From Catajapyx aquilonaris (lineage: Eukaryota): a DNA stretch of 37,179 nt. A program made the position numbers and the translations under genes. Under the pieces are notes generated by a model that worked only from the letters and a program-made list of their open reading frames with translations, had not been told where the DNA came from and ran no database searches. The DNA lies in NCBI GenBank assembly GCA_000934665.2, contig JYFJ02003827.1, positions 1 to 37,179 of the forward strand. Direction: 5' to 3'. Of the stretch, positions 2,404 through 35,100 are shown piece by piece; within the stretch, counting starts at the first letter, position 1, and every line of letters starts with the position of its first letter.

Positions 2404-5400
2404 GTAAGGAGGGGTTGCAGGAGATTGGAGTTATGAGGCTGCAAGTGTAGAGCACATGGTTCCTTGTGGGCATTACTGTAGCTGCATCATTGGGTTAGGG
2501 TTCTTAAAATGCAGTTGCTGGGGTTGGTGCTTGTGGCATGACGTGCTTGTAAATGGGCAAAAGTAGGGCGTGTTATAAGGACCCCACAGATGTCAAATGG
2601 TTAATCAAAGTACGCCATGTGTTTCTCACGTGGCTGTTTGAATAATAATATTTGCATGAAAGAGACTTGCCCCTGGGTTAGTATAATACATAAGATTACT
2701 GACTGATTGAGAAAAAAAAATGCGTTCATTTCATGCCTTATAATGTATTGTTGCTAGCTGTTTTTTGCTTGTGGGTTGATTTATTGGATGAGAGCTTCAG
2801 TGTGACAGGTCCTGTAGAGTATCAACTTGTTTATGATACATATTGGCATTCCAGAGAAGATGCAATCTTCCCATGCCATGACCAATCATATCCTACTTTT
2901 TTCCCACATATGGCCGTGTTTACATGTAAGTGATTTATCAGCAATGTTGCAGTGATGTACATCGCTGGTAAATTGCTTGCTTGTAAATACGGCTGAAGTT
3001 TGTTAAGAATGGACAAATCAGGTTACTTGATTATAGGGGACCCAGCCGAAAGTGGGCTCTACACAGGCGGTCCGACTCGGAGGCATCGGACACCCTCTTC
3101 AGACAGAGGTCTGCTGTTCGATGTTCGAAGGTGGGGGGACACGATCTTGTGGAGGGGGGGTGGAGGGTGGGGGACAAGTTTGTTTACTATGTTTAGGTGA
3201 AGGTGAAGGTGGTGTCGGGGGCAGTGAGTTCGACAAGAAGACCCCACTAGCCAATCAGAGAGCAGGGATGAGTCGAACAGTGATTCACACAGTCAATCCA
3301 ACGTTTTGCCCTGCCCACTCTCCCTTTTCCGACCTGCCTAGGTGACTTGAGCTGGCCTCCCTAGCTCCGACGTCAGATCCAACACGGAATTCCATTTACC
3401 CAGAAGGTCCGATGGTCGAATCAGGTCGGAGTCGGACCAACTGTGTAGAGCCCATTTAACCTGACTGTGACGTCATCATATTGCCATGATATTGCTTAGC
3501 AACTCCTAGTCAACGGAAATCTGCCAAACAGTCCTCGGAAACCTCCCACTTTTCCTGTTTCTATGGCAATGCCTTCACGCAACAATAAGAGTAAACAGTG
3601 TTGATGTTTATGCCTTTTGTTGTGTACTTAGAAACAGAAAAGTGGGAGGTTCCAGATGTGTGTTCGGCAGATTTCCATTGGCTAGGAGTTGCTGAGCGTT
3701 ATGATGAACTTCACTGGCAGGTTAAGCTGGGTTCCCTATATTAGTGATCACTCATGTTCAAGCTTCATCACCAGTAGGCCATAGTCTTATCATTTGAACA
3801 GGCATTTTGCTAGTCTTTGTATTATCAGCAGCATCACTGTTTTGTAACTGCCATCATTACAGATGTGCTGTCACTGAGCAATGCACATACCTGTACCATC
3901 TGCACACACTTGCAATAGGAATATGTTAAAGTTGTCTGAAAGTTGTGTGGCATATGCTGCTTATGAGATGTCATTGATTAGTTATTTAATATACAGTAAC
4001 TGTCTTTTGCTCTTGTGAACCTGCACCCATTCTTTTCCTTATTGCACACATTTGTGCACATTGCATCATGACAGTTCCCTTGATGGGGTAGTCTGCAATG
4101 ATGAAGGAAATGCAGCTTTATGATATGCAATTCACCTCACCATCTCACATGACCAAGATGATACTCTGAGACACAGTCAGACACCTGTGTAAAAAAAAAA
4201 CTATTCTTGCATTCATAAAACTGTGTAAAGCACATGGATTTTTACACTCTCTGTTTCTGTTTTCAGCATTCCAACGAAGCTGGCAAGATTCTTCACATTC
4301 TTCCAGCCCATACTGCTCGTATTAACAGCGTTCGATGGATGAGCACCCATGACAATCAACCTGAATCATACCTGGTGTCTGCTTCAGTGGACAAAACTGC
4401 ATCGTGTTGGAGTCTTGAGGATGGAAAATTCAAGAAAGTTGCCCGCCTTGAAGGTCACACCGAAGAAGTCACCGTCTCAGATGGCGTGCACCTTGGATCA
4501 TCCATTTTGGTGGCAACTGCAGCCTCAGATTCTACTGTTCGAATCTGGTCTCAATTTGAGTCAGTTCAGGTCATACAGGTGGCGCCTGAATTGGTGCTGG
4601 ATGTTAAGCTTCACATGATATCTGGAACTGTGCTGATGGCTTGTGCTGCATCCGACTGTAAAGTACACCTTTTTGTTGACAACACAGGCTTCAAACGTGT
4701 GGCAACTTTAACTGGACATGAAGACTGGGTTCGAGGAGTAGATTTTGCAATGGAAAATGGAGATATATTGCTGGCAACCTGTGCTCAAGATGCTTTGATT
4801 CGACTATGGCGTCTGACAACTCAGTCACAAACTGGCGGCGATTTGAAGTTACCAGAAATAACTTTTGAAGCTGGTGGTGACACGTGGATTGTGAAATTGG
4901 AGTCTGTTCTTTCAGGCCACGAATCACGTGTGTATGCTGCCAGATGGCTCCATACTCCCAAATTGCAGCTACTTTCAGTGTCTTGGGACAAAAGTGCCAT
5001 ACTTTGGGAACCAGAAGAATCAGGTGTCTGGACAGAGGTGACCCGTATTGGCCAAGTTGGTGGGTCGTCAGGTGGGTTTCTAGGAGGTGCCTGGAACCAA
5101 TCAGGTGCTGTACTACTTCATGGGTTCCAAGGTTCCCTACATTTGTGGCGTCAAGAAGAGAATGACTGGACTGTAGCTGTTGCTCCTAGTGGCCACTTTG
5201 GTCCTGTGTCAGATATTGACTGGAATCCAATGGGTGCATTTTTAATATCTGTTTCTGAGGACCAGACAACTCGGCTGCATGGTTGTTGGAAGAAAGCAGG
5301 CACTTGGCATGAGCTGAGTCGTGTGCAGATCCATGGGCATGATTTAACATGTGTGGCAGGGATATCCAATTGGAAGTTTGCTTCAGGAGGTGAGGAGAAA

Positions 5401-8400
5401 GTAGGAAGGGCCTTTGAGGCACCTAGAAATGCAATTGAGAACCTCTGCAGATTTACTGGAGCCGACTCGGAGAAGGAACTAGTCGGATTCAGTGGGCCTG
5501 AGGGTGCAACTATTCCTAGTCTTGGTCTGTCCAACAAGGCTATATATGAAGGAGGACAGGGTGATGCTGAGTTCACACCAGTTCATTTCAAACGTGAGTA
5601 TGGTTATCAAGGGTGGCATGGCAGTAACTAGAATGGGGGGATTGGGGGCAGCTGTTCTCAACATCAGTGGAGTTGGGCCCTTTGGCACCTGAACGCCTGA
5701 AGCAATGGTTCCTATTGCAAATTTCAGTGATATAGTCATGCCTGTCCATCTGAACACATCATATTTGTAAAGTAGTCCTACAAAGAAAAGTGTGACCAGT
5801 TTTATTTCCATCCTATGTTAATTATTACCATTGAATCCGGATGTAACAGTCTCTGCTATAACAGACTTTCAGCTACAACAGACTTTCGATTATAACAGAC
5901 TGAAAAGGTCCCAGCAAACTTCAATATATGGTTTGTGTGTTCAGCTATGACAGACCTTGGTTATAGCAGATTGATTTCCGCAGTCCCTTGAAGTCTGTTA
6001 TATCCGGATTCAACTGTATTAACATCAATCACAATCTGATCTAAGTCCAGTCAGTTGCCAAAGGGCCCAACTCCTGGAGTAGGCAACGGACTGCGAAGCA
6101 TCACATTAAATTATTTTAAAGTACTTCTAATTGACTTTGCCTTGTCATCTTTACCAGGGACTCCAAGAGTAGGAATCCTCAATAAAACAGTTTTTCGACA
6201 TTTTGGGAGTTGGGCCCTTTGGCAATTGACTTCTTCAATTCTCAACCTTATCGTACACATTGTAGTGACAGTTTTTATAGTAGGCCATTTGGTATCCAAC
6301 GCCTTTCCAAACCAAGCCCTAACTTGCAAGCATGCAGATGTAATTCTACGAAAATTCAGTTAGGCCAAATAGAGTAAATAAGAGTATTATCTCCTACTTG
6401 CCTGGTCAGTAGCATAATCATTGTCACCTGTTAAGTTATTAATACTCCTCAATAATATCCTAAGTAGGGTTTACAGAGTTGATTTTCTGCTATCACATCT
6501 GGAGTATGAAAACTGAATTGATGTGACATGTTATAATTGTTGTGTTTTGTTGGAGTAAGTAATAAAGTGAAGTGAGTCAGTTTTGCAGTTTTGCAGATCA
6601 ATTCTGTGCAGCATGTAGGCCCTATGTCTAGGTTAAACATAGCCACCAGCTGTCAGGTTGGTATGACGTCACTGTAGGATTTGAGAAAGGTACAGTTTCA
6701 ATTTGTTACTCCTGCGAGGACCATGGGGTGGGGAGACTACAAATTAACTCACTGACCTGTGAGTATGGAATAACCCCACTTCATCACAAGGTGATTTTCT
6801 TAAGTGAATTTTAACAAATTAGTTTGTGTTGTTGATGGAATGTGGAAAACTCTATCTGTTATTTTTATGTTTCTTGATTAATTATAGGTGGATGTATGAT
6901 TTAGTTCTTCTCACTTTACCCTTGCTGATTCTTACAGAACCACCCCCAGAAGATCACCTGCTAAGGAATACCCTGTGGCCTGAGGTGCACAAGCTCTATG
7001 GACATGGATATGAACTCATTTGCATGGCTGCCAACCCTACTGGCACACTTTTGGCCACAGCCTGCCGCTCCACTGATCAAGCCAATGCTGAGATCATACT
7101 CTGGTAAGTCTTCGACATTTTGCAGCAAGAGATTGTGAATTGAACTATTTGGACCAAGAAATACTCTTGACATTAAAGCATTGTTGAGAAAAATTATGAG
7201 AGAGTAGGTGCACACATAATTATGTCACAGTTTAGAGGAAGGGGTGAGCAGAAAGAAAACTGTTAAGAATCTCATCATAGCAAGGAGAAACAAACCTGCA
7301 TAAGGCAGTGTTGTATAAAGTCTTTCTTGCAGCTTATAAGGACAGTTTAGTTCACAATGATTCTAGGAAAAATTGCCACTCTGCCCGGTGGATAATCCAT
7401 TAACCCTTAACTAAGTAGGTAGGCGAAACACCTTTAACTACGTAGGTGGAGCCTGAGAGGCTCCAACGGTGTATTTAAATTTCTGCTTATGAACTAAATT
7501 GTTATATTGGACTTTTCACATACAGAATGTGCAGTTCAGATCATTCGGCTTCCGAAAACGTAAAAATCACACGCTGAGTCAGCATATTCTGACGGGGAAA
7601 AATTCTTAATTAAAAGGTTACATCATGCTTGAGCCGCTCAGGCTTCACCTACGAGATATAGAGCCTGAGCGGTTCCTCGTTACGAATTTTTTTAAACCAA
7701 ACAATAGGGACTAAAAAAAAATTTCTTTCCTTTTCATGCTTAGGAAGATTTTTCTGACAAAGTCATGGAAGGACAGTGGAAAATAAAATTCAATGAAAAA
7801 GTTACATGCGTTTAAATAGTGCTCGGAGCCTCTCAGGCTCCACCTACGCAGTTAAGGGTTAAGACTGCGGATTGGAAGTTTTATGATGATTGTGTTACCA
7901 GATATCAGATTTGGAACGTGGGTAATGCTTAAACTTAGACTACAACTAGTTGCTGGACAAGTATACTTGTTTTTAAATATCAGTATTTCTATTACACATA
8001 CATTTTTAAGCTATTGCTAAACATGATTTCGATTGTATTTATCAATCTCTGTTACAACTGTTTAAATTGAATGCTAATATTTACAGGAATGTTTCCACCT
8101 GGGAAATACATGCTCGCTTGCGCCACCACAAGTTGACAGTGACACAGCTAGCCTTTTCCCCATGTAATGCTCACCTCCTGAGTGTCTCTCGAGACAGAAC
8201 ATGGGCATTGTTTTCTACAAATGAGTCTGGTGATTGGAAAACCAGGCTAGTTTCAGGCCAGAAATCCCTCCACACACGAATTATATGGACATGTGCTTGG
8301 ACCTTAGATTCACAGTTCTTTGCGACTGGATCTAGAGATGGAAAAGTAGGTGTATGGAATGCAGACACTGGCACTTTGGCTGGAACTGCAATGGATCTGA

Positions 8401-9659
8401 AGACGTCTGTGACAGCTCTGGATTTTGGACTTTCCACTGGAGATAAATACTTGGTGGCAGTGGGAATGGAAAATGGTGTCATTGGTCTTTATATGTGGAG
8501 TAAGGAGTGTTGGAGCCAAGTCTTCATCATGGACAACCAGTATCCTTTTTGTCATAGTGAGTCAGAAAAATGTAGTATCAAAATAATCTTGAGTAGGCCT
8601 ACTCCATGAATATCAAGAAACAGTGTCAAAATGCATTAATATTGTAACATCTGGGTTAAAAGGAGATGAAATTATGCATGTTAGAAGTATTGATTGTTTG
8701 CATGGTTGACACCATTATTACAACAAAATGTTGTAAGGGTTCAATATTGCCACAAGTTGAGCTCCAAAAGTCGGGAGGAAATCAGTGATTGCAAACTATG
8801 CCATTAGGTGTAAGTGGTAAGACATGATTGTATCATCAATACATTAGCTGCTTTCCTTGCTGCCATCCCTCTATGGCCAGTTGCGCCATTGCATGTTTCA
8901 ATGTTGGTTTTACAAACCTCAAGTTTGTGAACAAACTCAGGTGCAGGTGCAAGAGCAATATATTAGTTTAGCAATGGCCTATTCAGTCAGTTCCCCTGGA
9001 GGTCCAATTTACCACAAATCCCACCCAAGACGAAGTTGGTGGGATCATTAAATGCCGCAGGAGATGAGAGAGAAATCTGAGCTTCAGATTGAGCCTGGAA
9101 CCTTTCTATTTGTGGATGCTTGCATTACTGCTATGCAGTCTGCCTTCTCACTAATATAGTATATTTATTTAGCTATATTCAGAGATTTTATTACTGAGAG
9201 ACCTAGAAATGCTGTGCATTTCTATGTTAGACAGCTTCCATTACATCAGACCAAAATTTGAGGATAGTGAGGATAAAGTAAGGATATACCAGCATTTAAT
9301 AGGTGAAAGGGGGGGAAGACCCTAGCTTCAGATTTAACCTGGAACCCCTCCAACCATGTGTGTGTATGTATGTTACTGCAGGCCACCCTGTAATATTTAG
9401 TGTCTGGCAGTGATCAATATCTGGAAAACAGCCACCTCAAATATTATGCAGAGAATGATGGCTAAAACATGCAACCAAGATGTAAATTTTGAATTTTATG
9501 GGCCCAAATTGGATTATGTTCCTTAATTTGTATCACAGTCTTCGCCATCTTTCAACTGTTAAATGCCTGAAGTTTCGACCCTGTGAAGAAAAAGATGTGG
9601 CACTGCTGGCCAGTTGCAGTACTGATCATTCAGTACGACTCCACACCATCAAACTGTAA
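2281..9659 (+). CDS. ELP2: Elongator complex protein 2 (tandem WD40 propellers), 729 aa; join(2281..2403,4267..5593,6938..7103,8087..8539,9539..9659)
   Basis: ELP2 motifs present: [122 protein letters not shown]. All intron phases are compatible and the total of 2190 nt gives 730 codons. Confidence 0.96.
3032..3740. mobile_element. Fold-back (palindromic) MITE in ELP2 intron 1, interrupted by a second MITE
   Basis: Ends are TATAGGGGACCCAGC (3032-3046) and GCTGGGTTCCCTATA (3726-3740). The left arm resumes at about 3456 (TTAACCTG...) and is complementary over about 110 bp to about 3629-3725. Confidence 0.8.
3053..3454. mobile_element. MITE with about 28-bp imperfect TIRs (PIF/Harbinger-like ends), nested in the left TIR of the fold-back element
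   Basis: TGGGCTCTACACAGgcGGTCCGACTCgGA at 3053 versus TCgGAGTCGGACCaaCTGTGTAGAGCCCA ending at 3454. No clean TSD, so the superfamily is tentative. Confidence 0.75.
4267..5593 (+). CDS. ELP2: ELP2 coding exon 2 (1327 nt)
   Basis: tttctgttttcag| acceptor and C|GTGAGT donor (phase 1). Corresponds to ORF 4234..5631. Confidence 0.95.
5828..6016. mobile_element. Tc1/mariner (pogo/Tigger-like) MITE with TA TSD
   Basis: TA|CCATTGAATCCGGATGTAACAG ... CTGTTATATCCGGATTCAACTG|TA, with internal reiterated ATAACAGAC motifs. Confidence 0.8.
6050..6230. repeat. 25-bp inverted repeat pair (MITE-like), with a third copy at 5669-5692
   Basis: GTCAGTTGCCAAAGGGCCCAACTCC (6050-6074) versus GGAGTTGGGCCCTTTGGCAATTGAC (6206-6230), 1 mismatch. 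GGAGTTGGGCCCTTTGGCA also occurs at 5669. Confidence 0.75.
6938..7103 (+). CDS. ELP2: ELP2 coding exon 3
   Basis: ttcttacag| acceptor, [15 protein letters not shown] motif, TG|GTAAGT donor (phase 2). Confidence 0.95.
7404..7858. mobile_element. piggyBac-like MITE (TTAA TSD, CCC...GGG ends), 455 bp, in ELP2 intron 3
   Basis: TTAA|CCCTTAACT... at 7400-7412 and ...AGTTAAGGG|TTAA at 7850-7862. The TIR core CGTAGGTGGAGCCTGAGAGGCTCC is present at both ends, with internal copies of the motif at about 7631-7674. Confidence 0.85.
8087..8539 (+). CDS. ELP2: ELP2 coding exon 4
   Basis: atttacag| acceptor and WD40 repeats. Ends at the U12-type donor CA|GTATCCTTTT (phase 2). Confidence 0.92.
8540..9538 (+). 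other. ELP2: U12-type (minor spliceosome) GT-AG intron, last intron of ELP2
   Basis: 5' splice site GTATCCTTTT at 8540. U12 branch sequence TTCCTTAAT at 9519-9527, with the branch A about 12 nt before CAG| at 9538. No polypyrimidine tract. Splicing restores the frame into the last WD repeat. Confidence 0.92.
9539..9659 (+). CDS. ELP2: ELP2 last coding exon ([39 protein letters not shown])
   Basis: Terminal WD40 repeat matching the ELP2 C-terminus. TAA at 9657-9659 and AATAAA at 9853-9858. Not in the ORF track. Confidence 0.9.
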
Positions 9660-11179
9660 TTTTCATAGGACAAGGAGTAAGTAAAACAAGAATGTCACAT
9701 TTCATTTATACCTCTATTATATTTCCATGTACTTTCTTTTTTTCAATATTCTTGTAATGTTGAAACAATCGTTGTATTACAATGAAAAAACGAGGCCTTC
9801 CCATTTTGGCCTTGACACAAGAGACAACTCCCAAGATTTGTTTTTCTTGAGTAATAAAGAGTTGGGAAGGGGACTCTGAGCATCGAGAAACATTGGTTGT
9901 ACTTGGTCCAACAAGCCAATAACATCCATAAAGCTGAGAAGCTAAGACAGAAGCAAAAAGGCGTCAGAAAAAATGTAGCAGCTGGAGTGACCCAAGCTCA
10001 CTCTTCTCTCTCCCTCATTTATCTACAAGTACCTACACCTTTTTGGCATTTTTGGCCTCAAAATTACAGTTGAGCTTGCAGTCAACTAGCTCAATGTGAC
10101 TGCCCTTGCAACAATGGTCCCTTTCCAGAGAAAACGATTAAAAGCCTGTGAGCATAGTTTAGCCACTCCAGCTGCACAAGGGACGAGTTTCAAGCTACTA
10201 CTGAACACTGCATTAACTGGGCTCCGCAGCCAATATTACAAGCAACACAGCTCCATGTAAAAAAAATTCCAATCATTTGTATTTTTTATCAGTTTTTGTG
10301 TTATGTTTGTCCTTCCTACCTGCGATGGCCACGCTGTCAGCCAACCCACAGGTGGCTTTATACAAAATAATTATTTACAGAGAAATGAAGAGGCACTATT
10401 GCCATAACAAACTTCAGAAAACTAGGAAGGAGGGAAATAAATCAGGGACTAAATAGGAGTTCAAATAAGTCAACTTATTGTCAACACAGCGGGATTAATT
10501 TAGGCAAAGGGGGTTAAAACGCTATAAACCAAGCAATTTACAACTCAACGCAAGAACCTTGTAAAACTCCCTATGTAGAAAAATTGACAAAATATACGCT
10601 CATCCTTACAAAGACTGGTCAGGTGTATGCATAGAATGCTACATTTTAGTGCGTGCAGTGAGAAATTAAAAAATCTTTACAAATGCATTGTACTTTGTAA
10701 CTCTTGCCATTGTTTGTCACATTGAAAATTTGCAAGATGTTTTTTAAAAACCTTTTTGAGTCCCTCGGTTTGTCTTCTTCATGACTTTAAAAACGTAAAC
10801 AAAGGGTTGGTATAAAACCACAGCAAAGTGTCGCATTAACGTCAACTACATGTATGTATAAACCCCACACATGGTTCAAGCAGCCTAGGGCAAACCCTAC
10901 AGAATCTGTCTATTTAGCATGGTGATGGGGAAACAACACTATGCCCTACAGAACATGTCGAAAAGTGTGATGTCTGGTGTCTTAAATAAAAAACGACAGG
11001 ACTGTAGGGAACAAGGGGAGGATTCAGGAATGTACTAAGAAACGGAAGCAGACGACAGTTATATACAGACACGGGTTAATATGACATATACCGGTATTAG
11101 ACGCCTAGGACAAAATTTTTTTTCTTTCTTCTTTTTGCATTTTTGAGGAGTTTTTGGATGGGTGTAATTGGGAAGGGAA

Positions 11180-11327
11180 TCACAGGCGCTCAGAGACGTA
11201 GTCAGGCTGAGGAGGGGGCGGGGGTCTTCTGCAGAGGAGGTGCGGGAGAAGCACCGCTGCACCCAGCAGGGCAGCCCCCAGGGCGTTGAGCACCACTGCC
11301 TCCAGGGGCATCTCCGAGTAGCGCAGG
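11180..11327 (-). CDS. nemy: Cytochrome b561 alternative last exon B (LRYSEMPLEAVVLNALGAALLGAAVLLPHLLCRRPPPPPQPDYVSERL*)
   Basis: Branch CTAAC and tgcttgcag| acceptor, phase 2 matching the donor at 12637. Fits the family pattern Y-S-x-(L/M)-P-x-E-x-x-x-x-N-x-L-G followed by TM6. TGA at 11182-11180. This frame is absent from the ORF track. Confidence 0.85.
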
Positions 11328-14300
11328 CTGCAAGCACAGCGCGGTTAGAAAAATACAGAGAGAGGCACAAAGCCACGCCCTCACTCACACACATACAAGC
11401 ACTGGGTTCATTTTTCTAAAACAGATTAGAGGTGGTCATAAGCAAGTACCCAAGCCATTATAGCGACAACACAATAGAGGCAGTGGTGAATGTTGTGTCC
11501 AGACCTGCGATTAGAGCCCCATGGAAATTCTGAAGATCCTGTTAGTTGTAGTGGGACTGGAATGTCAGGTGGAATGAAATGGCTCAATTATTATTGTTTC
11601 CTGTTTTGCAAGGTTTTCACAAGCTGTAGCCCAGAAGAGAGATGACTTCAGAATTTTCACGTGACAGACCCTGCTGGCAACTTCTCATAAGCAGTTTTTT
11701 TTTTGTTTATTGTCATTTTTTTCACTTTATAGCTGGCATATGCAAAACTCAGCAAATAAATAGTCTATTGCAATAAGAATTTCCCAGCAGGACCCAAAAA
11801 ATTCAGAAGAAACAAACACACATTATAAAGCAGGAGCATAAGTTCCCAACACCACAGCTGTCTGTTGGCAGGTTGGTTGGTTTGGTTAGTCAAAAGACAA
11901 TGTACTGTGCCAAGAGGGGCAAGGGGGCAGGTTATGAAATTTGACAGATGGAAAAAAAAAACTATCTCAGAGGTCTGTTTGAGCAGTGATTAGGATATGA
12001 GAGCGCATCCTAGAGGGGTCCCTGCGAAACAGCAGGTAGGCTGTGGCGATGGAGGCTGCCACCAGGACGACGGCCAGAGCGTTGACAATCACTCTCTCCA
12101 TCTCAACATCCTGGCGATCTCTGGAAGTCCTGCAAGCGTCCATTAAAATCAGTTTCTGGGTGATGGGCCATCATTTCCATGGAGTAGGGTTCAAATATGA
12201 CCAAGTTTCAAAATAAATAGGAAATAATGGGTGCATACTCTTTTTTTCTAAATTAAATACCAGTAATCTCTGAAATAAGAAAGGGACAGATATCACAGGC
12301 ATTTTACCCCTTCCCTTCCTCAGTTCCTTCTAAAATAAAGTGTGAAGACCAAATTTTGCTAACAAAAACTAATTTTTAAAAACTGAGGCTGGATATCTTG
12401 TGGGCATGGGTTATGTCATTTACCTTTGTACCATGGTGCAGCTAACAGATTTTGTAAAATAGTGACTTTTAATGTTACATTATGCTGAAAGAAATGACAC
12501 TACAGTTAACTTTCATGATCACCTTTGGCTGCAATAAATACTAAGTTATATAAATGCTAGATGTAGAGAGCATACATCTGATTTCTCAGTGATGAGCTCA
12601 GATTATCCAGTGTATCTAACTAAGCTTATTACTCACGTCTCTGTCATGTAGATCTTCTGCGTGAGTCCGGTGAGGCAAGCGGCCACAGCCACTCCAAAGG
12701 TTGTGGCTCCAAAGGTGGCATGAACTGGAACCAGTGCAGTACGGAACGCCTCGGTTGCTCCCTCGCAGCAGAGCAGAATCAGGAAACTGAAGAATCCAAC
12801 CACAAACTGAAAAAGTAAAGTTTTTACAAATAAATGCAAAATGATGCTACCAGTTGATCTGCAACAGTACCCAGAGTATACACAACATGAGAGCCTAGTT
12901 TCCTGCATTGTGTCCAATTGACTCTAATGGGTCAAGGCTTTAAAATGACCCTGTGTGCTTGGAAGTGAATAGGCTATTATAATTATGTATGCTTTGGGTG
13001 CACCCAAACCAGGGTCCTTTTCACATCCCCCTCCCCCTCCATGCGCATGACATTCATTACTTGTATTGCTACCTGGAGAGCAAAGAGTCCCATGGCAGTG
13101 AGTCCCACCCAGGAGTGGAGACTGTAGAAGTCAGGGATGGCTGTCGGCTGGCGTTTGTGCCATTCCAGCACTGCGATGAAGCCCATGACAATGCATGGGA
13201 TGGCCAGCAGGTGGAACACAGTGTGAACCAGCTTCACATATAGCTTCTTGCAGCAGTAGAACACACGGTAGAACAGCATTGCTGTAATAAGCCACAGCAT
13301 GAGTAATATATAGCCTTATTCTGTAGTAGTTGTTCTGAGTAGTCTTATTTTTTGAACTTTTACTTGCCAAAAACTTGGATTACCTCCAAGAGTCAGAAAC
13401 TAATGTGCATGTTCATGAATTTAGTTTGTGGTTCGCATACGATTTTAGGTATACATGGACTGAGAGATGGATTAACGGGTAGCACAGCAAAGTGGGACAA
13501 ACACATTTTCACACAGCAAGCACAGTGCCCTGAAACTGCCCATCCCTGCAGAGAGGCCTTTAAAAAAAACCCACTACCCCTGAAGAACTGTATTGTTCAA
13601 AACCATGAACATCAGTTTTCACTTGGCTGAATCACAACTGGCTGTGTCATATAGTGAAACAGAAATGGAGAGTACTTTTTCAGCAAGTAAAAGTACCTCT
13701 TTAGTTCGGCTTTGTTATTCTGTCTATTTAAGTGGAACAGCCACAAAGGAAAATGTGCATCTCTCTACTCTCTTGCTTCTAGTGCAAATATTAAATCAGG
13801 CCATACTGAGGAAGCCCCTTTTCAATAGGCTTGCAGATAGCGGAATGCATTTTTATGGAAATGTGCATCCCTTCTATACATCTCATTTATGTAGCAAAAT
13901 AGAAGTCACACTCACAAAATCCGGAGAAGAAGATGAATCCTGAGACCATGAGGACAGGATGGAGGTTGAACTGCTTGTCAAGTTGAGTAATGTCATCCCA
14001 GGCGAAACCCTCTCGAAAGTAGATGGCCCAGAAGAAGACCAGCGCCAGGGCTCCAATCAGGAGAAATGCCAGTGCCACCAGCACCAGCAGGTATTCGCAC
14101 CGACTTGCACATCCCCACTCTGAAGTGCTGTCTGTTGACGACCGATGCCTGTCAGATGAGCCAACATGATTATCATTAGCACCATCAAAGGTTGGCGGAT
14201 TTCCATACAAACTCGTGCATGTTTTTGTTCTGTCAGGCTGCCAAGCATGACACTTGTCAGGTCTGATTGTTTTCTGGCTGCGTGTGACACAGTNGGGGGG

Positions 14301-17300: not shown

Positions 17301-20300
17301 TTGGTCTCTTTTCACACTCGGCTCACATGTAGGTCTAAGTTTGCACAAGAATCGTAGTGTGGTAGACCTTTTTTTCCGCAAGTGGCCTAACGCTTTTGGT
17401 TGCAAACGTACACCAGATCTCTTATCTCGGCCAAATAAACAGCGATGTAGGCCAAGTATAGTATGGTGTGGTTATGTGCCATTTCCAAAAAATTCGTCCA
17501 GCCCTCTTACATGAAGGGCTCCGTTACGCTAGTGCCGAACCGCGTTAATTTTGATGTCATGAGGAATATCCTCCTTAGCAGATCCTGGCCTAGAGCCAAT
17601 TACTACCTAATGAACTGCACATGTGAGCCTTATGCAAGCCTCGGTCTTTTGGTAGCTGCCCATGTACCGCCTAAAATCCGTGCCCCTCTTTAGTTTGTAC
17701 TAGGTGGCTGCAAGGTGGCTGTAAAAGCAACCCCTAAAGGGTCCCGACGGTCCATAACGGCAGTGTTGATGGCCACGTGCCATTCCGGTAATGGCTCAAG
17801 TAAATGTGGCCCTATAGACACAAGAGGTCATTGGGGAAGTATCCTCTCGCGCAGGGGTGCCCGGGAGCTCATTTGCATACGTGATGCAGGCGAAAGGCTG
17901 CGTGTCCCGTTACAATTGGAAAGGCCGGCCCCAACCTCGGGTACGGCCACCGTGGACAAGTGTTGGAATCACACGCTGGACCACGGGGAGATGCGGAAGA
18001 ACAGCTGGTTTCCAAGCGTGGACACCCAAGGCCGCTATATTGTATACCCCCTCCCCAAACCCTGTCCCTTGCTTTTTCTTTTCTGCAAACCCACTCCTCG
18101 GTTTGAGTCCCGCTCCTTCTTTGGAATGCGCCATTGCCACGTCTTGTAAAGTGCCTCGAGGGGCGCCTGGCGCCACAGCTGTTTACGTTGCACGGTATCT
18201 CTCTTGGTGCACCCAAACACAAGGTGGGCGGGACGATATAGGTGCTGCTGTTGGGATGAAGATTCGCGGCCTTGAGGGTGCCGTCATCGCTTAAGCTGGG
18301 TCGAAGGTCAGGGATGGGCCTTGGTTGCCGCTTCTGGCACTCAGGGTCACTGGGTCACGCCCAGAGGAAATACAAGGGGCAAGGACGGAGCAGATCCTTC
18401 CGGAGATGAGAGGCCGTTCATCCGGAAGTTACGGGGGAGCTAAGCGTTTAGCACGGACGGCAACACCGTTCATTTCCATCAAACTACGTCGCCTCCCTTT
18501 ACAAGTTCACGTCGTGATGACTGATGAGGAAGCAAATGAGCCGCTTCCCGTTTTAAACACTGGTGTACCATGCTCGGGCGGGTATATACTGCTTTGCCTT
18601 TCACCCAAAGTTCACTAACTTGGACATTTCAGATTCAATAAGGAGCGTCTCCCCCCTGCTTTTCAATTACCTTGATCAATATATGCTATAGAAAAAAGAC
18701 GGTTAGAAACAAGCGACGTCAAGAGGAAGTGACGTCAGGTTGCCCACTGTTACCTTTACCACCTGCTCCACACACATCACACACTCTCTCTCATTCTCAC
18801 AGAAACGCATGCACTAAACGACAACTCACTTCAACTTGGACGTCATCCTCCTGATCCTCCTAGTGGAGCACTAATCACAGGGTGCACAAGAAAAAACCTC
18901 CGAAAATGTATATCACCGGAGGGCGCCCCTCGGGTGTTGTCCACGCAAAGGTCCACTGGCGGCCCAAACTCAACTGCGGCCGCTCAGCCAACCAGCCAAC
19001 CAACCAACCAACCAGACTGCCTCGACTCCTCCAACTCCCCACCACTTCAATTCGACCCCCACCATATCCCCCCACATTATATTCCTCCACCTCTTTTCCA
19101 TGGGGGCAGGTTGCCAACCCTCCAAGTCATGGGCTTACTTGGCAACAATGTCCCCTTTCACTATTGTCTCCCCCTTCACCAATCGCACATGTCACCTTTG
19201 ACACCCCCACCAATTTACAGGAGGTAAACAACGATTTCTGTGGTTTATTTGGAACCTGTAGGGGGGGTGGTGGGCATTACCGGGCACCAGCTAACGGGTG
19301 TTCCGGATTCCGGGGTGGGGACCAGGCACCTATATTTTCGAGGAGGACGCCGCGCAGGCCCTGGGATCGATACAGGGACAAGCAGCTTGCAGAAGTCGAT
19401 GAACGCTTTATTTGCCCAGATAGGCATCGAATTGGGAGGACATATCAAGTTCTTTGGCCAGTTGGCAAGCCTTCTAACCAATTCCCCCACCCTTATATTC
19501 ACCACCCCCTATACTTTAATCCACGACTGGCTCCCCCTCGGGGGGCTCATGGACCCTGTTGCCACTTTCCCCTCCAAACGTCGTTGCCAACTTTGAAAAT
19601 CTGTACTTACCTACCAACATGAACACAACAAAAACTGGTATGCCCCCACCTTTTATGCGATAACTGCATCTGGAGAAAGTGGGGCTCAGATCTCACAGAC
19701 GGACGAATTCTTCTGTACCCACTTGTTGTTGTTGACTGTCCGGATGATGAGGAGAAAATGGCCTTACGTCCTTCGCTCATTGAACTTTTCAGATCGTTAG
19801 CCAGGTGTTATGCTGTACCTTTTTCCCTTCACGCTTTTGCACTTGGGTGAGCTGCGTAATGAGTCTCGTAAACGGCGTACCAGCTTAGCGATACCGATAG
19901 GCTACCGTATCGATATGCACACCGGAAGGAAATTCTTTGAGGATTATGTAAACGAGCCATCCTTGTCCTTTGCATCATAATGCGGCCAATGGGAACGCAC
20001 CTATACGCTGACTGAATACACTATTTTTTTCCTGCAGTATTGGCAATTCAAAGCGTATTCATGAGGCGTGCAACTTTACGAGTTTTCCTTGCTCGAGTGT
20101 TTACTTCGCCGCAAAAATGTGCATAACCGGGCCTGAATATAATGGATCGATCTTTTTTTTCTTTCTACGTCCTTTTCGCTTCTTTGTTTCCGACGGATAA
20201 TTCAATTCTTTCAGGGACAAGTAACGTGCGTGCGTTCTAAATATTCCTCCAGGCCACAGAGACGCGAACAAGTTGTGGGCTGCAAATTATAGTCATTGAA

Positions 20301-22731: not shown

Positions 22732-25700
22732 ACCCCCCTTGGGCGGCTCTTCTTCGGCACTGATCTTGACGTATCGCTTGGGCCACCTATCTCAAACCCA
22801 TACTTCTCCCCTGTAAAAGAAAAAGTACGAATAAAAAAGGAGGACGCCATAAACAGTCTGGCAGCATGGCATCCGCTTATTTATGCTGTGCGCTTATTTA
22901 TTATTATTTGGGATGTGGCTCAGGGCATGATGAAGGCTGGAAGCTCTCCTTGTGCGCCCACGCATCTCCATGTGGAGAATAACACGCAGGCTCATTTGCA
23001 TCGCATTTAGGCCATTACAATAATGGTTATGCGAGTGCGTTAGTTGGCCGGACAGCCGCCATCATCCCCCTACCCCTTCCCCTCTAAAAACAATGTAAAT
23101 AAATAAATCATCTCGATCAGCTGCCCAGCAAGTAGTGCACGAACTGACGTGTCGTGTCCACTCTAGTTGCCACTTAGGTGGGTGGGATCATGAGCTCGGC
23201 CCCACCACCCATTCATTAAGATGCATTATTTATTTCGCTTCGGTATATGTCATTTACACTGCATTCGCAGGTGGGTAAATTTTGGTTCGTGTCTGGTTTT
23301 AAGTGGAATGGGCGGTTCTTCTTTCTCCCACACAAATTCCCTGGAATGCGCCTCAAACCCTCGTAAGAGCTTATGCAAGCATAGTGCCTCAGAATTATAC
23401 AGGGTAGTGCACTCACAAGTCCATAGTCTAACTGTGGGGGCTGAAGAAATGTTATGGACTATATTTCGATTCCATCAGGCAGTTCAGAGAGAAGGAGCGA
23501 TCACAAGTAAATGTGGCTCCTGAGTGTTGCATCCCATGGGTTTCTGGGGTAAACAATCAATATAAATGCTCTCTCTACTCTCCCTATTGAACTGGGGACT
23601 TGGGCAACATCCTCTATTCCAGCAGATACTGTCCAAAATGCGAATTCAAACGTGGTATCTAAATGTAGCCAATCCTATAATAACATCACAATATGTAATA
23701 AGCAGCTCAGGTATTGCAGAATAGGGCACTGACCTTTTTAACTGAGGAGTAAGTTTAAACTACAAAATACTGAATGGGGAAAAAGGAAACTCCCTGGTAA
23801 TTGGAACTAATTTTACGGCTAGCGAAATTGCGTTTTTAATGGCACAACATGCTGCATAATTTATCCGATATGGAGTATCTGCAGTTGTTGGGCTACATTT
23901 TAAGGAAATTACATGCGGTAATTCCAGGTAGGGCTTAATTGATAATTTAAACTTCCAAGCCACAAAATCCCGCACCTTCTACAGGTAGACATGTTGTATC
24001 CCACACATGAGAGAATGTGGAGTGGAGGGGGAAAAAAGTGGTTCGATATTTTAGCCTGTGGCTCCATTCGTGACGATGATGGATTTATTATTACTTTTCT
24101 CATTCGCAAGGCTCCTGAAAATTAAAACATGTTTACACGTCCGAAAAACGGCACGACCCTTGTAATTCTGTCAGTACAAGGTGCTCGAACACATTTACAT
24201 CGAATTCAAAAGGTGGAACATCAAGTGGGTCCCATACATTATCTCTCTCCCATCACATTACGTGCAGAAGAAGCGTATCCTACTGAACTACACCTACTCT
24301 AACGAGATGTTTTGTACGTGTTTCACGCACCGAAGGATACGCTACCAACCATCAGCCGTCATAATATGTGTAAATGACTATTCCCATCCAAAAAGAGATG
24401 GTCTTTGACCGACACGCCCTGATGGAAATACAGTCGTTTCTTCGCCCCAATGAATCTCAACTTTCCAGTTTGCAATCCCACCCCTTTCATCCATATTTTT
24501 ACACAATATGAACCATACCTCCCACCATCCATATCCCTGGATCCAAAAAATTCTGTCCCAGGAGAGAGTAAGAGAACCAACCGCGCCCCTAACTTTTGCC
24601 CTGATCGATCGTCTAATTCCAAGCCTGAGAGCGGGCATCGACCTGCAGACGCACCTCGTGCACCCCCCTCCTACCCCCTACCCCCTAACCCCCCNCCCCT
24701 TTTACATATATATTCCCATCCCCTTGCCCCTCCCACCACCCCCATAATTTTTGGCCAAACCGGTACGCACCCCGCTCCAAAAAATTCTGCCCCGTAGAGC
24801 TAGGCAACCCAACTCACCTTGAGATCCACCAGAGGAGGTCAGTGGAACTGCCTGATTTGTGTGGGTGGGATGGACTAATGCAATAAACCCACCCCCTCCC
24901 AATGTTGGGTGGGGTCAGGAGGGAAATGGGGGGTGTAAAGATTGAGGGTGGGACACCCCCACCTCTCCCTAGAAAAAAAAAAATTATCCGAGAGAGAGGT
25001 GCAGAGAGGGGCTTCCAAACTCTTCTGCTGCCGGTTGGGTGTCTCTTGTCTGGATTTTGCAGGCCGATATGTGCGACGCTGGGGCTGCCTAGCTTCCCGC
25101 TCATATGCGCGCGCATTGACGTTTTCCCCAACCCCCACCAACCCAGCCTAAAAACATATACCCTCAACCCCCTCCCTAACCCCTTCACAAAACAACCAGA
25201 TGACTTTTGAAGAGAGAAATAAAAAATGGTGGGTCCAGACAGCCTTTTCATTCAGTCTGGTCCATTCATTTGGGCAGAGATTAATTTCGAAGTGTCTGGG
25301 TTGAATTTTATTTAAAAAATATTGCCAAAAAAATAGTTTTGCAATATCTTAGCAATATCAGCAGAACATGATACGGTGGATGGTAATGTCCACTAATTGT
25401 CACTTTCTCCGTTTGTTTGTACTTGATGGCAGGTGAAAAATATACTGCAGCATTATGCAAATGCACCGAACTTGAAAAATGCTGAAATTGCAGTTTCGCA
25501 GTTTCAGGGCGACATTTGAATATTTGCAGGGTCTGCAAAACTCTGGAAGAGAAGAAGGAAATAAATGCCACGTCACTTATGCCTGAGTGCCAGATGAACG
25601 GACTGGTAGTCATTGAACTTGTATAGAATTGGCCAGTGTGCACTTCATACATCCGGTACTACAGTTACGAGCACCACCCAAAAATATGATTACACATCCT

Positions 25701-32105: not shown

Positions 32106-35100
32106 GTATGTATAGCCCCTCTGGTCACTGCACCAGGGCCTGTAACCCTCATCATGTATCTGTCATGGCAGTGAAGAAAAATTATGTTGGCAAAACCTGA
32201 GTGTGCAACCATTGGAATGCACTGACTCCTCCACTTGTAGAGGGAGAATCATTTCTTAGCTGCAACCCAAACTGCTACAGCCCTTTTTATCAAACAGAGA
32301 CACTCAACTTTAATGCAATTTTGATCCATTTTATGTCACTAATGAGAGGCCAGAAGTGTTGTTATTTTTGTGACCTATCTCAAAGTTTTCAAGAAATATG
32401 AAAATAATGGCACCTACTCAATTAGGGTTAGAGATGTCACAGCAGTGTGAGCTAGCTTTGGGTAGGTTTTGCTAGACTCTTTTGGAGTCATGGAGAGATC
32501 AGATTTGGTTCCATTTTATATTTAAAACTGATGAAGCAAGTACAAGTGTCTGTTACATGGAAACTTCGCCATGTGAAGTTTGGGATGTCTCACATTACAT
32601 GAGCTGCACATTGCTGGATGTTAACCACCTGCTACGCACCACCAGATACATGCCAGTATAAAACCAAATAGTTGGTACCTTGCCAGAAACAGGACATTCA
32701 CTTAGAGTATTGCTAATAGGTTTTATAGCATTGTATGATTTTGTCTCCACTCATCAGAACTAGCAGTCCAGATTTGAAAGGTGTGAAAAAGAGTTGTGCA
32801 CTATATGTTAATGCACACCAAAAGGGGAAAGTTTGGACACTTTCTGCGGCAGTCAGACTTCGAATGCCTACTCTCAAATACTACCTACTAATCGTAGCTA
32901 CTGAATGCAAATCTACATAACTAACCACAAGGTTCTTTTGTTAATTAGAGCTCTGGCCTTCTTATACCGCCGGGCCGAACCAGTCACGCAGTTGTTTCTG
33001 TTAGAGGCCACACGAAACAGACTACCTTTACCAAAACCTGCGGTGAGGCGACTTCTAGAAGATGCTGAATCACCCCCAAAGGTAAGTGACATAAAAACAG
33101 ATCATTTTTTTACAGGATTATCTAGTTTCTAGTTCATGGGTCATCATACAGAACCTGCCCCATATTTTGACACCTCATCAAGAGTTGTAGTGCTCAACTT
33201 CTGTCACTGTTATTTGTCATTCAAATGGTATACTAAGGCAATCTTTTGGAAAAATACAGGTAAATGAAACATGACATGCGTATTAAAATGTTACTCTTAA
33301 ATAACAACTTTTCAAAGTGGAAAGGCAGAGGAATGTTATTGTAGGATATCTGAGGTTAATTTTCACAGATGGAAAATGATATAACCAATTATAATGGTTT
33401 TAATGCTTTCAGGTGGACCGAAGTGATCGCCGTCTGACAGGCTCTAGTGTGATTGATGAGTCTCTGCAGGAGATTCTTGGCTATGTACTCCGAGATTACG
33501 TCCATCCCTGGTATGAGGACCTTGGGAATGAGGAGGAAATCCTCTCAGAAGAGAGCTGCAGAGGGAGTGATCTACCTGAGGAACTTCGTCGGACCATCCA
33601 AAATGCTCTGGTGGTTATCTCTGGGCGTATCAAAGAGGTGGACTGGATCCCCTACTTGGCAACTCGTCTGGTAGATGATGCTGCCTCACACCTCCGGCTC
33701 TTCAGGCAGGCCAGGTCCAGATTGGATGGCCGGAATTCAAGCACTGCTAATACAGCATTAGAATCATCTGGGTCCTCTGAGAGTGATGCCAACTCTTCTG
33801 GTTCATCTGCTTCTTCAGCCCCAGCACCCACCCTGCAGGAATTGTTCTTCCAGATGGAGGCAGCCATGGAGAACTCACTCTCCAGACGTGATGCATGTGT
33901 TTCTCCTGAAGCACAAAAAAGTTAGTTTTTTCAGGACTGAAGTAGTGTAGAATCCACGACAGATGTTGCCATATTTAGGCAAGCATGCATACAGATACAC
34001 CCAAATGCAAACTTTTATTTGCTGGTAGACTTTTTGTAGGCATTGGTAGGCTTTTTGTAGACAGTGCTCATTTTAAACAGAAATGTAATAATTACTTTTC
34101 TACATTTTTATTGGTTCTCACTTGTAAGAGATTGATCTCGATGAATTACTTGAAGTGTGCTAATGAAACTCATTAATTTATGTAATGGCAGAATACCTGG
34201 AGGATGTGTGTGAGGCAGTGCTGTACCTGGTTCTCCCTGAGATTGATTTCCAGTGCAGGGCCATACGATTCTTGGCCCGAGAGCTTCTGGTAGAGGTTGT
34301 CCTCACACCCACTCTACAACTGCTTTCTGATCCAGATTATGTTAACCAGTCAATTGTGTGGCTGGTAAGTCACATATTGTGTTTGTATTGCTATCAGAAA
34401 TCTAAGGTCTTTGATGTATTACAGTTCCGTGACTTCAGCATTCCCAGCGAAGTGTTTCTCACTGTTCTGAGAGTCACCCATAGTAAGGATGAACTTCATG
34501 CCACCCGGGATCTGGTGGGGAAGGAAATTTCTCAGCTGGTGAGTGCATTTGATTCTTTTCCAATTGACCAAAGAATTATGATACAATGAATAAGGTAGGA
34601 ATTTTTAGAGTATATGAGGGTTGCATGATGCCAGGGGATAAATTACTACATGCATGTGTGTTGTGCAGATTGTACATTATGTAACTTGCCCAGGTCATTG
34701 GCATTATGTCAGCTCAGTTCACTCCATCATGGATGATCATCTGCATCTGAGTAAGCTGGTGGCCTCATGAGTACCCCAAATGTGGAAGAAACAATTGTAA
34801 TGATGATGTGTATTTTTGCCGTGGTTTGATCTTGTTATGTTATGGAGAGACTTCTTTCAAATAGCAACGGATAAGTGTTCTGTGTCTGAGATATTTTGAG
34901 ATGTATGAAAAAATAGATGACAATGTAACGATGGGTGAATTAATGCTGTATTTTTTCTCCTCCATTGTATTTGGATAGCGTTCAAGAGATACAGGGGGTG
35001 AAGATGATGCGCAAATCAAACAGCAGTTACGGAGCTTGCAATACCTTCGAAAAATTATTGATATCAGGCTCCAGAGGTTGCAGGCTAGGGAGGGTGGGGG

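Follow-up and report, generated by a model that had tools for sequence, protein, structure and literature searches.

Tandem-duplicated exons that are mutually exclusive or alternative occur in arthropod ion-channel and Dscam genes. Here we describe a locus in which such a pair appears to close a gene for a membrane redox protein, a cytochrome b561 gene on the minus strand of contig JYFJ02003827.1 of Catajapyx aquilonaris. The whole stretch of 37,179 nucleotides (nt) that was analysed is called the window below. This gene very probably carries two tandem, anciently duplicated last coding exons, A (proximal) and B (distal), both of which are spliced and whose products may have diverged in function. 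Like tandem-duplicated exons generally, the two copies are homologous, begin in the same phase and are used one per messenger RNA (mRNA), exchanging a membrane helix around an unchanged core. Unlike those systems, the duplicated exon is terminal, and exclusion would come from the stop codon of exon A, possibly together with polyadenylation, rather than from splice incompatibility. We know of no alternative sixth transmembrane helix (TM6) for the genes of Dcytb or Arabidopsis Cytb561-B.

In Drosophila, nemy (no extended memory, CG8776) encodes a cytochrome b561 of which several splice forms with distinct synaptic actions exist; these are told apart by length and first exon, and the accessible part of that account mentions no alternative C-terminus (PMC4523183). 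The accessible part of a 2023 survey of insect cytochromes b561 states that isoforms were taken out of its data set (PMC10691727), and a 2026 preprint, as far as its accessible text goes, describes a tandem untranslated-region (UTR) event in nemy that is distinct from the A/B last-exon pair. In literature on nemy and cytochrome b561 isoforms and on alternative last exons, to the extent that its text was accessible, we found no paper on an alternative TM6 or C-terminus.

At the database level such an isoform pair is already known, as RefSeq predictions in other arthropods. Examples are Anthonomus grandis XP_050310288.1 (X1) and XP_050310289.1 (X2), Euwallacea similis XP_066248078.1 and XP_066248079.1, Tigriopus californicus LOC131882483 X2 and X3, and Penaeus japonicus XP_042880284.1 and XP_042880286.1. 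As in the window, a shared prefix is followed in these pairs by two alternative segments of ~48-77 residues, each with a loop, TM6 and a tail. The predictions are automatic annotations and were compared as proteins, whereas the window shows the exons, their order, phase and acceptors, and the RNA junctions directly. It also differs from them in detail, since its A loop is unusually charged and without Tyr, and beetle B tails end in ..DHM, not ..ERL.

Two last exons behind one splice donor

The coding sequence up to the shared donor is constant. Exon 4 ends at 12637 as ..GAG AC/GTGAGT, in phase 2, so that the next exon supplies one base, and the base from exon A or from exon B completes the split codon to Thr in both cases. 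The same acceptor, GCTTGCAG, directly precedes both exons (12130-12137 for A, 11328-11335 for B). The window contains this octamer five times where 1.28 copies are expected, a count reached by 2 of 100 shuffles, and alone it is weak evidence. The pyrimidine tract is weak at the exon A acceptor and strong at that of exon B. The exon A frame runs from T-TSRDRQDVEMERVIVNALAVVLVAAS to HILITAQTDL and stops at 11969-11967; that of exon B runs from T-LRYSEMPLEAVVLNALGAALLGAAVLL to PPPPPQPDYVSERL and stops at 11182-11180. Both frames lie in open stop-to-stop open reading frames (ORFs), of 67 and 54 amino acids (aa), and in both a basic RR stands at the cytosolic end of TM6 (..FRR in A, ..CRR in B). 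The peptides are identical at 12 of 32 residues (pairwise expectation value E 8e-8). Their DNA is identical at only 51 of 96 nucleotides (53%) and at 12 of 32 third positions, which indicates that the duplication is old rather than recent. What an earlier note had read from this sequence, namely the shared acceptor and phase, the alignable peptides, the separate stops and an AATAAA after exon A, all holds on re-reading.

We also built a hidden Markov model (HMM) from 45 homologue C-terminal segments, with window rows excluded, and ran it on the 1619 six-frame ORFs of at least 15 aa in the window. Two ORFs stood out, that of exon B (E 1.3e-9) and that of exon A (E 1.6e-5). The best of the others had an E of 0.81, so no third copy of the exon was found among these ORFs. 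A second AG lies at 12120, 9 nt inside exon A (..acttccag/a); it fits phase 2 and would make the A loop 3 residues shorter, but the contig joint for exon A lies at 12128/12129 only, not at 12120. Phase fits only 12129 or 12120, and no upstream in-frame acceptor would give exon A a Tyr-containing loop.

RNA evidence came from one public run, X1, a record without a stated kind, whose unstranded assembled contigs behave as cDNA and whose depth is one mean figure per contig. The contigs skip 13915-13282, 13072-12807, 12636-12130 and 12636-11328, in each case at GT..AG borders. Identity to the window is 99% or more for all 7 aligned pieces, and intron bins have a depth of 0-2.4. The joint 12637>12129, leading into exon A, is carried by one contig of depth 37 with 31 letters on its short side, and the joint 12637>11327, leading into exon B, by one contig of depth 32 with 30 letters. 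Short sides of this length are expected where two paths branch at one donor in a k=31 graph. The two junctions that the earlier note had proposed to look for across tissues are thus both present, in a single run, and its central claim, that one gene gives two mRNAs and two proteins with an alternative TM5-TM6 loop, TM6 and cytosolic tail, is well supported.

In the mechanism that we propose, the spliceosome would join the shared donor at 12637 to one of two acceptors. Use of the proximal acceptor at 12129 would include exon A, whose stop ends at 11967 and is followed after 256 nt by an AATAAA, and use of the distal acceptor at 11327 would include exon B. The two proteins would share TM1-TM5, the four haem histidines and both ascorbate-side motifs, and would differ from H4+29 on (H4+n numbering after PMC10691727). 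Acceptor choice, perhaps linked with cleavage at the proximal poly(A) signal, would set the A/B ratio.

Conservation and fold of the two exon types

A search with exon 3 found a weevil protein and copepod proteins, and a profile search of 1.84 billion representatives gave 1987 matches at E<=0.001, the best 150 of which were inspected. In Anthonomus grandis, isoform X2 shares its sequence with X1/X3/X4 as far as ..GLTEKALFELG, beyond which it has an end of its own, and the Tigriopus californicus isoforms likewise have a shared prefix and then differ to the end. The profile search and further cluster look-ups brought in isoform pairs from Euwallacea similis, E. fornicatus and Penaeus japonicus. 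In all 6 isoform pairs examined (5 species: three beetles, a copepod and a shrimp), identity breaks off at H4+27/28, which is exactly where exon 4 ends in the window. The shrimp pair starts with S and R, respectively, as would fit one split AG/N codon. In Blattella germanica (PSN31400.1) and Phthorimaea operculella (KAI5636318.1) a single chain holds two loop-plus-TM6 units, A-like and then B-like, the same order as in the window. These comparisons indicate that the A/B pair is old and conserved in arthropods; the earlier note would have given up its proposal had only one junction been seen and the other exon been unconserved or broken in frame in relatives, and both exon types recur in relatives.

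Several other relatives (P0025, P0030, P0180, P0182-P0184 and P0187) stop at the switch point, with ends such as ..EKAFFELR, ..FFSLR and ..FTLG. These may be gene models truncated at the exon border, or else products of read-through that have no TM6.

The tails allow the copies to be told apart. Exon A has its best match in the beetle X1-type C-terminus (47.5% over 40 aa) and no C-terminal match to the beetle X2 type. In a gapped local test its tail, RRDPSRMRSHILI, aligned to the beetle QRDEFRYRAHILI with a score of 39 (next best 27), a value reached by 3 of 1000 shuffles, and both the window A tail and the beetle X1-type tail (..RAHILIRSGDL) stop after ..DL. An end-anchored test of the A tail had failed, with 1808 of 2000 shuffles reaching the score, owing to a one-residue difference in tail length; the gapped local test was used instead. 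Exon B as a whole was best matched by Lygus P0020, at 39% over 46 aa that extend to the C-terminal residue, and by Tigriopus X3. Its tail, ..DYVSERL, compares with ..SYVSERL in Lygus hesperus, ..FISERL in Laodelphax and ..FVTERL in the cockroach Blattella (copy 2) and the lacewing Chrysoperla, and in the end-anchored test the observed score was reached by 1 of 2000 shuffles. E-R-L-COOH ends six sequences: the window, Lygus, Laodelphax, Blattella copy 2, Chrysoperla and P0024. Other B tails end in D-H-M (beetles), ..SERLTEHL (shrimp and lobster) or H-D-I (Tigriopus). The alignments thus indicate that the tails of A and B are type-specific. That the E-R-L end of the B tail might bind a PDZ domain, as a class III ligand (D/E-x-hydrophobic-COOH), is a guess.

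Neither tail carries the EDXXLL motif of the insect CG1275 group, which counts against a placement of the gene there. In the accessible part of the insect survey the Nemy group is likewise without this lysosomal motif (PMC10691727). The ..PEDxxLL.. proteins P0063, P0066 and P0006 fall with the outgroup, split off by a 98/98 branch. The unnamed match P0075 carries Glu at H4+25, the residue reported for D. melanogaster Nemy, and is a candidate only.

The structure prediction proposed in the earlier note was carried out on the weevil isoforms, which stand in for the window's own spliced proteins, and both fold as complete six-helix Dcytb-like proteins. The AlphaFold2 model of the A-type isoform has a predicted local distance difference test (pLDDT) value of 89.8, TM6 at 217-242 and six long helices; that of the B-type isoform has a pLDDT of 84.7, a helix at 271-310 and again six long helices. 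The best PDB match of both is Dcytb 5ZLE, with a template-modelling score (TM-score) by target of 0.91 for the A type and 0.88 for the B type. Across Dcytb/CYBRD1 (5ZLE/5ZLG) and Arabidopsis Cytb561-B (4O6Y) the models superpose with TM-scores by target of 0.88-0.92. On these models, either exon can probably complete the six-helix fold.

Weighing the alternative explanations

This section takes up the points that weigh against two functionally distinct, anciently duplicated last exons, together with the explanations that they would favour and the evidence on the other side. The RNA evidence is a single run, in which each alternative joint is one contig with 30-31 letters on the short side, which is the caution limit. 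Such contigs could in principle be artefacts of de Bruijn assembly or stem from another organism in the run. However, the joints fall exactly on borders that had been predicted beforehand from frame and GT..AG, and where two paths leave the same donor, one side is bound to be k-1 letters long. The 7 aligned pieces match the window at the identity given above, and the same run splices three upstream introns correctly. We therefore consider an artefactual origin of the joints highly improbable, and both junctions are taken as genuine below.

The earlier note had also proposed a separate 3' UTR for the A form. The exon-A contig (record 2, 862 nt, depth 37) runs without a break from 12128 to 11298; it passes the AATAAA and reaches 30 nt into exon B, so that a separate 3' end of the A form is no more than a possibility. 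The A form may arise by use of an alternative acceptor within a single long terminal exon. In that case A and B would be alternative 3' splice sites of one composite terminal exon with the same distal end, and the exon B sequence would be 3' UTR in the A form; the genomic A run that follows the AATAAA could mimic a poly(A) site. On the other side, contig depth is a mean, so 11700-11328 could be thin read-through or pre-mRNA, and the intron 12130-12636 is also partly covered, at a depth of 0.7-7.6. Moreover, the A stop is followed at a usual distance by a canonical AATAAA. The minus strand between 9500 and 12000 has no other AATAAA or ATTAAA, and neither hexamer was found on that strand at 9500-11180. 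A composite terminal exon is possible but less likely than not.

Exon A itself has unusual features. Its loop (TSRDRQDVEMER) is charged and lacks the Tyr that is present in the 6 other A-type loops compared, and together with the weak acceptor this loss may mean that exon A is under relaxed constraint or evolving faster in this lineage. At the extreme, exon A would be a little-used, decaying duplicate, exon B would make the working protein, and the A junction would be splicing noise. The weak pyrimidine tract, the divergent charged loop without the usual Tyr/Pro, an HMM score below that of B and a long branch (1.94, the longest but three in the tree described below) would agree with decay. Yet exon A keeps an open frame of 53 codons whose stop follows directly on ..DL, as it does in beetles, and the tail RxHILI..DL is conserved in a protein that is only 65% identical in its core. 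Nor is the A joint the shallower of the two (37, against 32 at the B joint), though contig depth measures usage poorly. Decay of exon A is thus very unlikely, and two working last exons remain our explanation of the locus.

Searched alone, the exon A and exon B peptides had no match among 5.8 billion proteins at E up to 10. The gapped local test that succeeded for the A tail was not significant for the B tail, where 306 of 1000 shuffles reached the observed score. A tree of 47 loop-plus-TM6 segments (54 columns) was unresolved, formed no A and B clades, and paired window A with window B (94/81) instead of with their presumed orthologues. If taken at face value, this pairing would mean that the copies arose or were homogenised within the lineage, by independent duplication or gene conversion, and are not one-to-one orthologous with A and B of beetles, bugs and crustaceans. 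Placed on the tree, the A label and the B label each require 2 changes, and the 8-nt acceptor GCTTGCAG is shared by both exons, as such an origin would allow. However, the tree has only 54 columns and many open forks, and the approximately unbiased (AU) test did not reject the A-versus-B split (p 0.225), so the tree cannot decide on it. The type-specific tails are mostly dropped by the trimmed alignment. The low identity of the two exons in DNA and at third positions argues against a recent conversion tract, and the order of A then B matches the cockroach and moth models. A lineage-specific origin is unlikely, and we retain the ancient duplication.

The last set of points concerns function. 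In Dcytb, according to the accessible part of its structure paper, both termini are cytoplasmic (PMC6123691), which places the TM5-TM6 loop on the non-cytoplasmic side, as the earlier note had stated, and makes the swapped part that loop, TM6 and the cytosolic tail. The note had further proposed that the isoforms differ in trafficking, which is conjectural, and in acceptor-side surface. The loop is indeed swapped, but the known contacts to the non-cytoplasmic haem and ascorbate, H4+21 (Glu180) and H4+25 (Phe184) in the accessible text of PMC10691727, lie in the constant exon 4, outside the swapped part. Like Dcytb, the window protein keeps the four histidines and the YSLHSW motif, and the RR at the cytosolic TM6 end of both A and B stands where Lys225 of Dcytb binds a haem propionate. 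Unlike Dcytb, it has Gln instead of Glu at H4+21 and Met instead of Phe at H4+25. The class I PDZ pattern (T-x-L) that the earlier note had read on the A tail is not conserved, as A tails end in T-D-L in the window, G-D-L in beetles (3 species) and V-D-L in moth copy 1, with only ..DL in common.

TM6 is part of the dimer contact in Dcytb (accessible part of PMC6123691), so that a different TM6 could change dimer pairing, a point absent from the earlier note. Given this contact and the distinct end motifs conserved in the two tails, we infer that the isoforms most likely diverge in their choice of partner or dimer and in their sorting to membranes, rather than in the core electron path. A more far-reaching proposal, which we offer tentatively and regard as doubtful, is that A/B is a switch that spans the Pancrustacea and dates back hundreds of millions of years, in which the redox core is kept while the dimer-contact helix and the tail are changed. 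Separate A and B homodimers would then be sorted to different membranes, for example to secretory vesicles and to the cell surface or endosomes.

Gene model, neighbouring genes and significance

The features of the gene are collected in the table. Its coding sequence begins at ATG 18846-18844 and the model has five coding exons, the last one being A or B; all introns of the model are GT..AG, and the spliced frames have no internal stop over 792 nt for the A form and 777 nt for the B form. The first exon was located through a loose contig end of 85 letters at acceptor 14148, whose first 30 letters map uniquely to 18830-18859. Its frame joins exon 2 without a stop, and the N-terminus of the product is similar to that of weevil isoform X4, MAKNKMHAAHRHYEDDNEWGC. 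The donor of exon 4 is common to both last exons. The exon 3 and exon 4 ORFs match Pfam PF03188, eukaryotic cytochrome b561 (E 4.7e-20, 72.7 bits at a cutoff of 23, and E 3.2e-9, respectively). The spliced product carries His 69, 103, 139 and 182 in its constant part as the four haem-ligating histidines, on TM2-TM5. In a 60-sequence alignment led by a 259-aa weevil isoform, the positions of H69 and H182 are invariant and those of H103 and H139 nearly invariant; this alignment excludes the window protein, and the histidine match rests on coinciding numbering. The last hydropathy stretch of the product, the sixth helix outside the haem core, lies at 218-246 in the A form and 216-243 in the B form, and the nearest named relatives carry the automatic names 'CYBRD1' and 'CYB561-like'. 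The gene is an arthropod six-helix, two-haem cytochrome b561 of the CYB561/CYBRD1-like kind.

Table. Features of the cytochrome b561 gene and its 3' flank (positions in the window).
Feature	Position	Strand	Remarks
First coding exon, 3' end seen in RNA	18830..18859	-	MTSKLK.. from ATG 18846-18844; donor GTGAGT after 18830
Exon 2	13916..14148	-	TM1 and start of TM2 (..HRSSTDSTSEWGC..FNLHPVLMVSGFIFFSGF); contig joint 13281<>13916
Exon 3	13073..13281	-	TM2-TM4 part, MLFYRVF and YSLHSW; joints 13281<>13916 and 12806<>13073; 65% identical to weevil protein
Exon 4	12637..12806	-	TM4-TM5, fourth haem histidine H182; ends in split codon H4+28; donor GTGAGT
Last exon A (proximal)	11967..12129	-	charged loop, TM6, tail ..RSHILITAQTDL and stop; 263-aa isoform
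AATAAA after exon A	11706..11711	-	~256 nt past A stop; genomic A run follows
Last exon B (distal)	11180..11327	-	YSxxPxE loop, TM6, proline run, ..DYVSERL tail and stop; 258-aa isoform
Transcribed stretch downstream of exon B	9647..11179	.	3' UTR of B form and/or convergent WD40 gene

Short (GGTT)n/(CCAA)n-like runs occur on the minus strand at 18975-19030, near the first exon, and at 11870-11895, in the 3' UTR of exon A. Single N bases stand in the assembly at 14294, in the intron upstream of exon 2, and at 24695.

Convergent with the b561 gene is a multi-exon WD40-repeat gene on the plus strand (4219-9659), with Pfam WD40 matches on the ORFs 4219-5631, 8010-8609 and 9486-9656; the computed match is to WD40 only, and we presume a resemblance to Elongator subunit 2. 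The contig of record 1 (1681 nt, depth 93) is aligned over 10500-11327, and its reach to 9647 was computed from its length. It is apparently unbroken from exon B to the stop region of the WD40 gene, which suggests adjoining or overlapping 3' UTRs for this convergent pair. A further X1 contig joins 9647-9676 to 12652 onward, which on the plus strand is a canonical intron (9676/GTAAGT ... AG/12652). Its donor lies 17 nt past the stop of the WD40 gene (TAA 9657-9659) and its acceptor lies antisense inside b561 exon 4, so that some WD40-gene transcripts appear to have a 3'-UTR exon antisense to b561, with an intron spanning exons A and B. Farther away on the plus strand, exons of a PXA-domain (sorting-nexin-like) gene lie at 33404-34589 and probably extend to about 36000 (Pfam PF02194, E 6.5e-20 and 4.9e-16).

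For annotation, the locus carries a warning: the published cockroach and moth models fuse both copies into one impossible protein, and searches with either exon peptide alone return nothing. Work on insect cytochromes b561, on nemy in memory and at the synapse and on candidate ferric reductases, has assumed one C-terminus per gene. A conserved choice between two sixth helices and tails amounts to a natural experiment on what TM6, the loop and the tail contribute to dimer contact, non-cytoplasmic access and sorting. If A and B do form separate homodimers that are sorted to different membranes, then one gene would serve both monooxygenase support and iron reduction.

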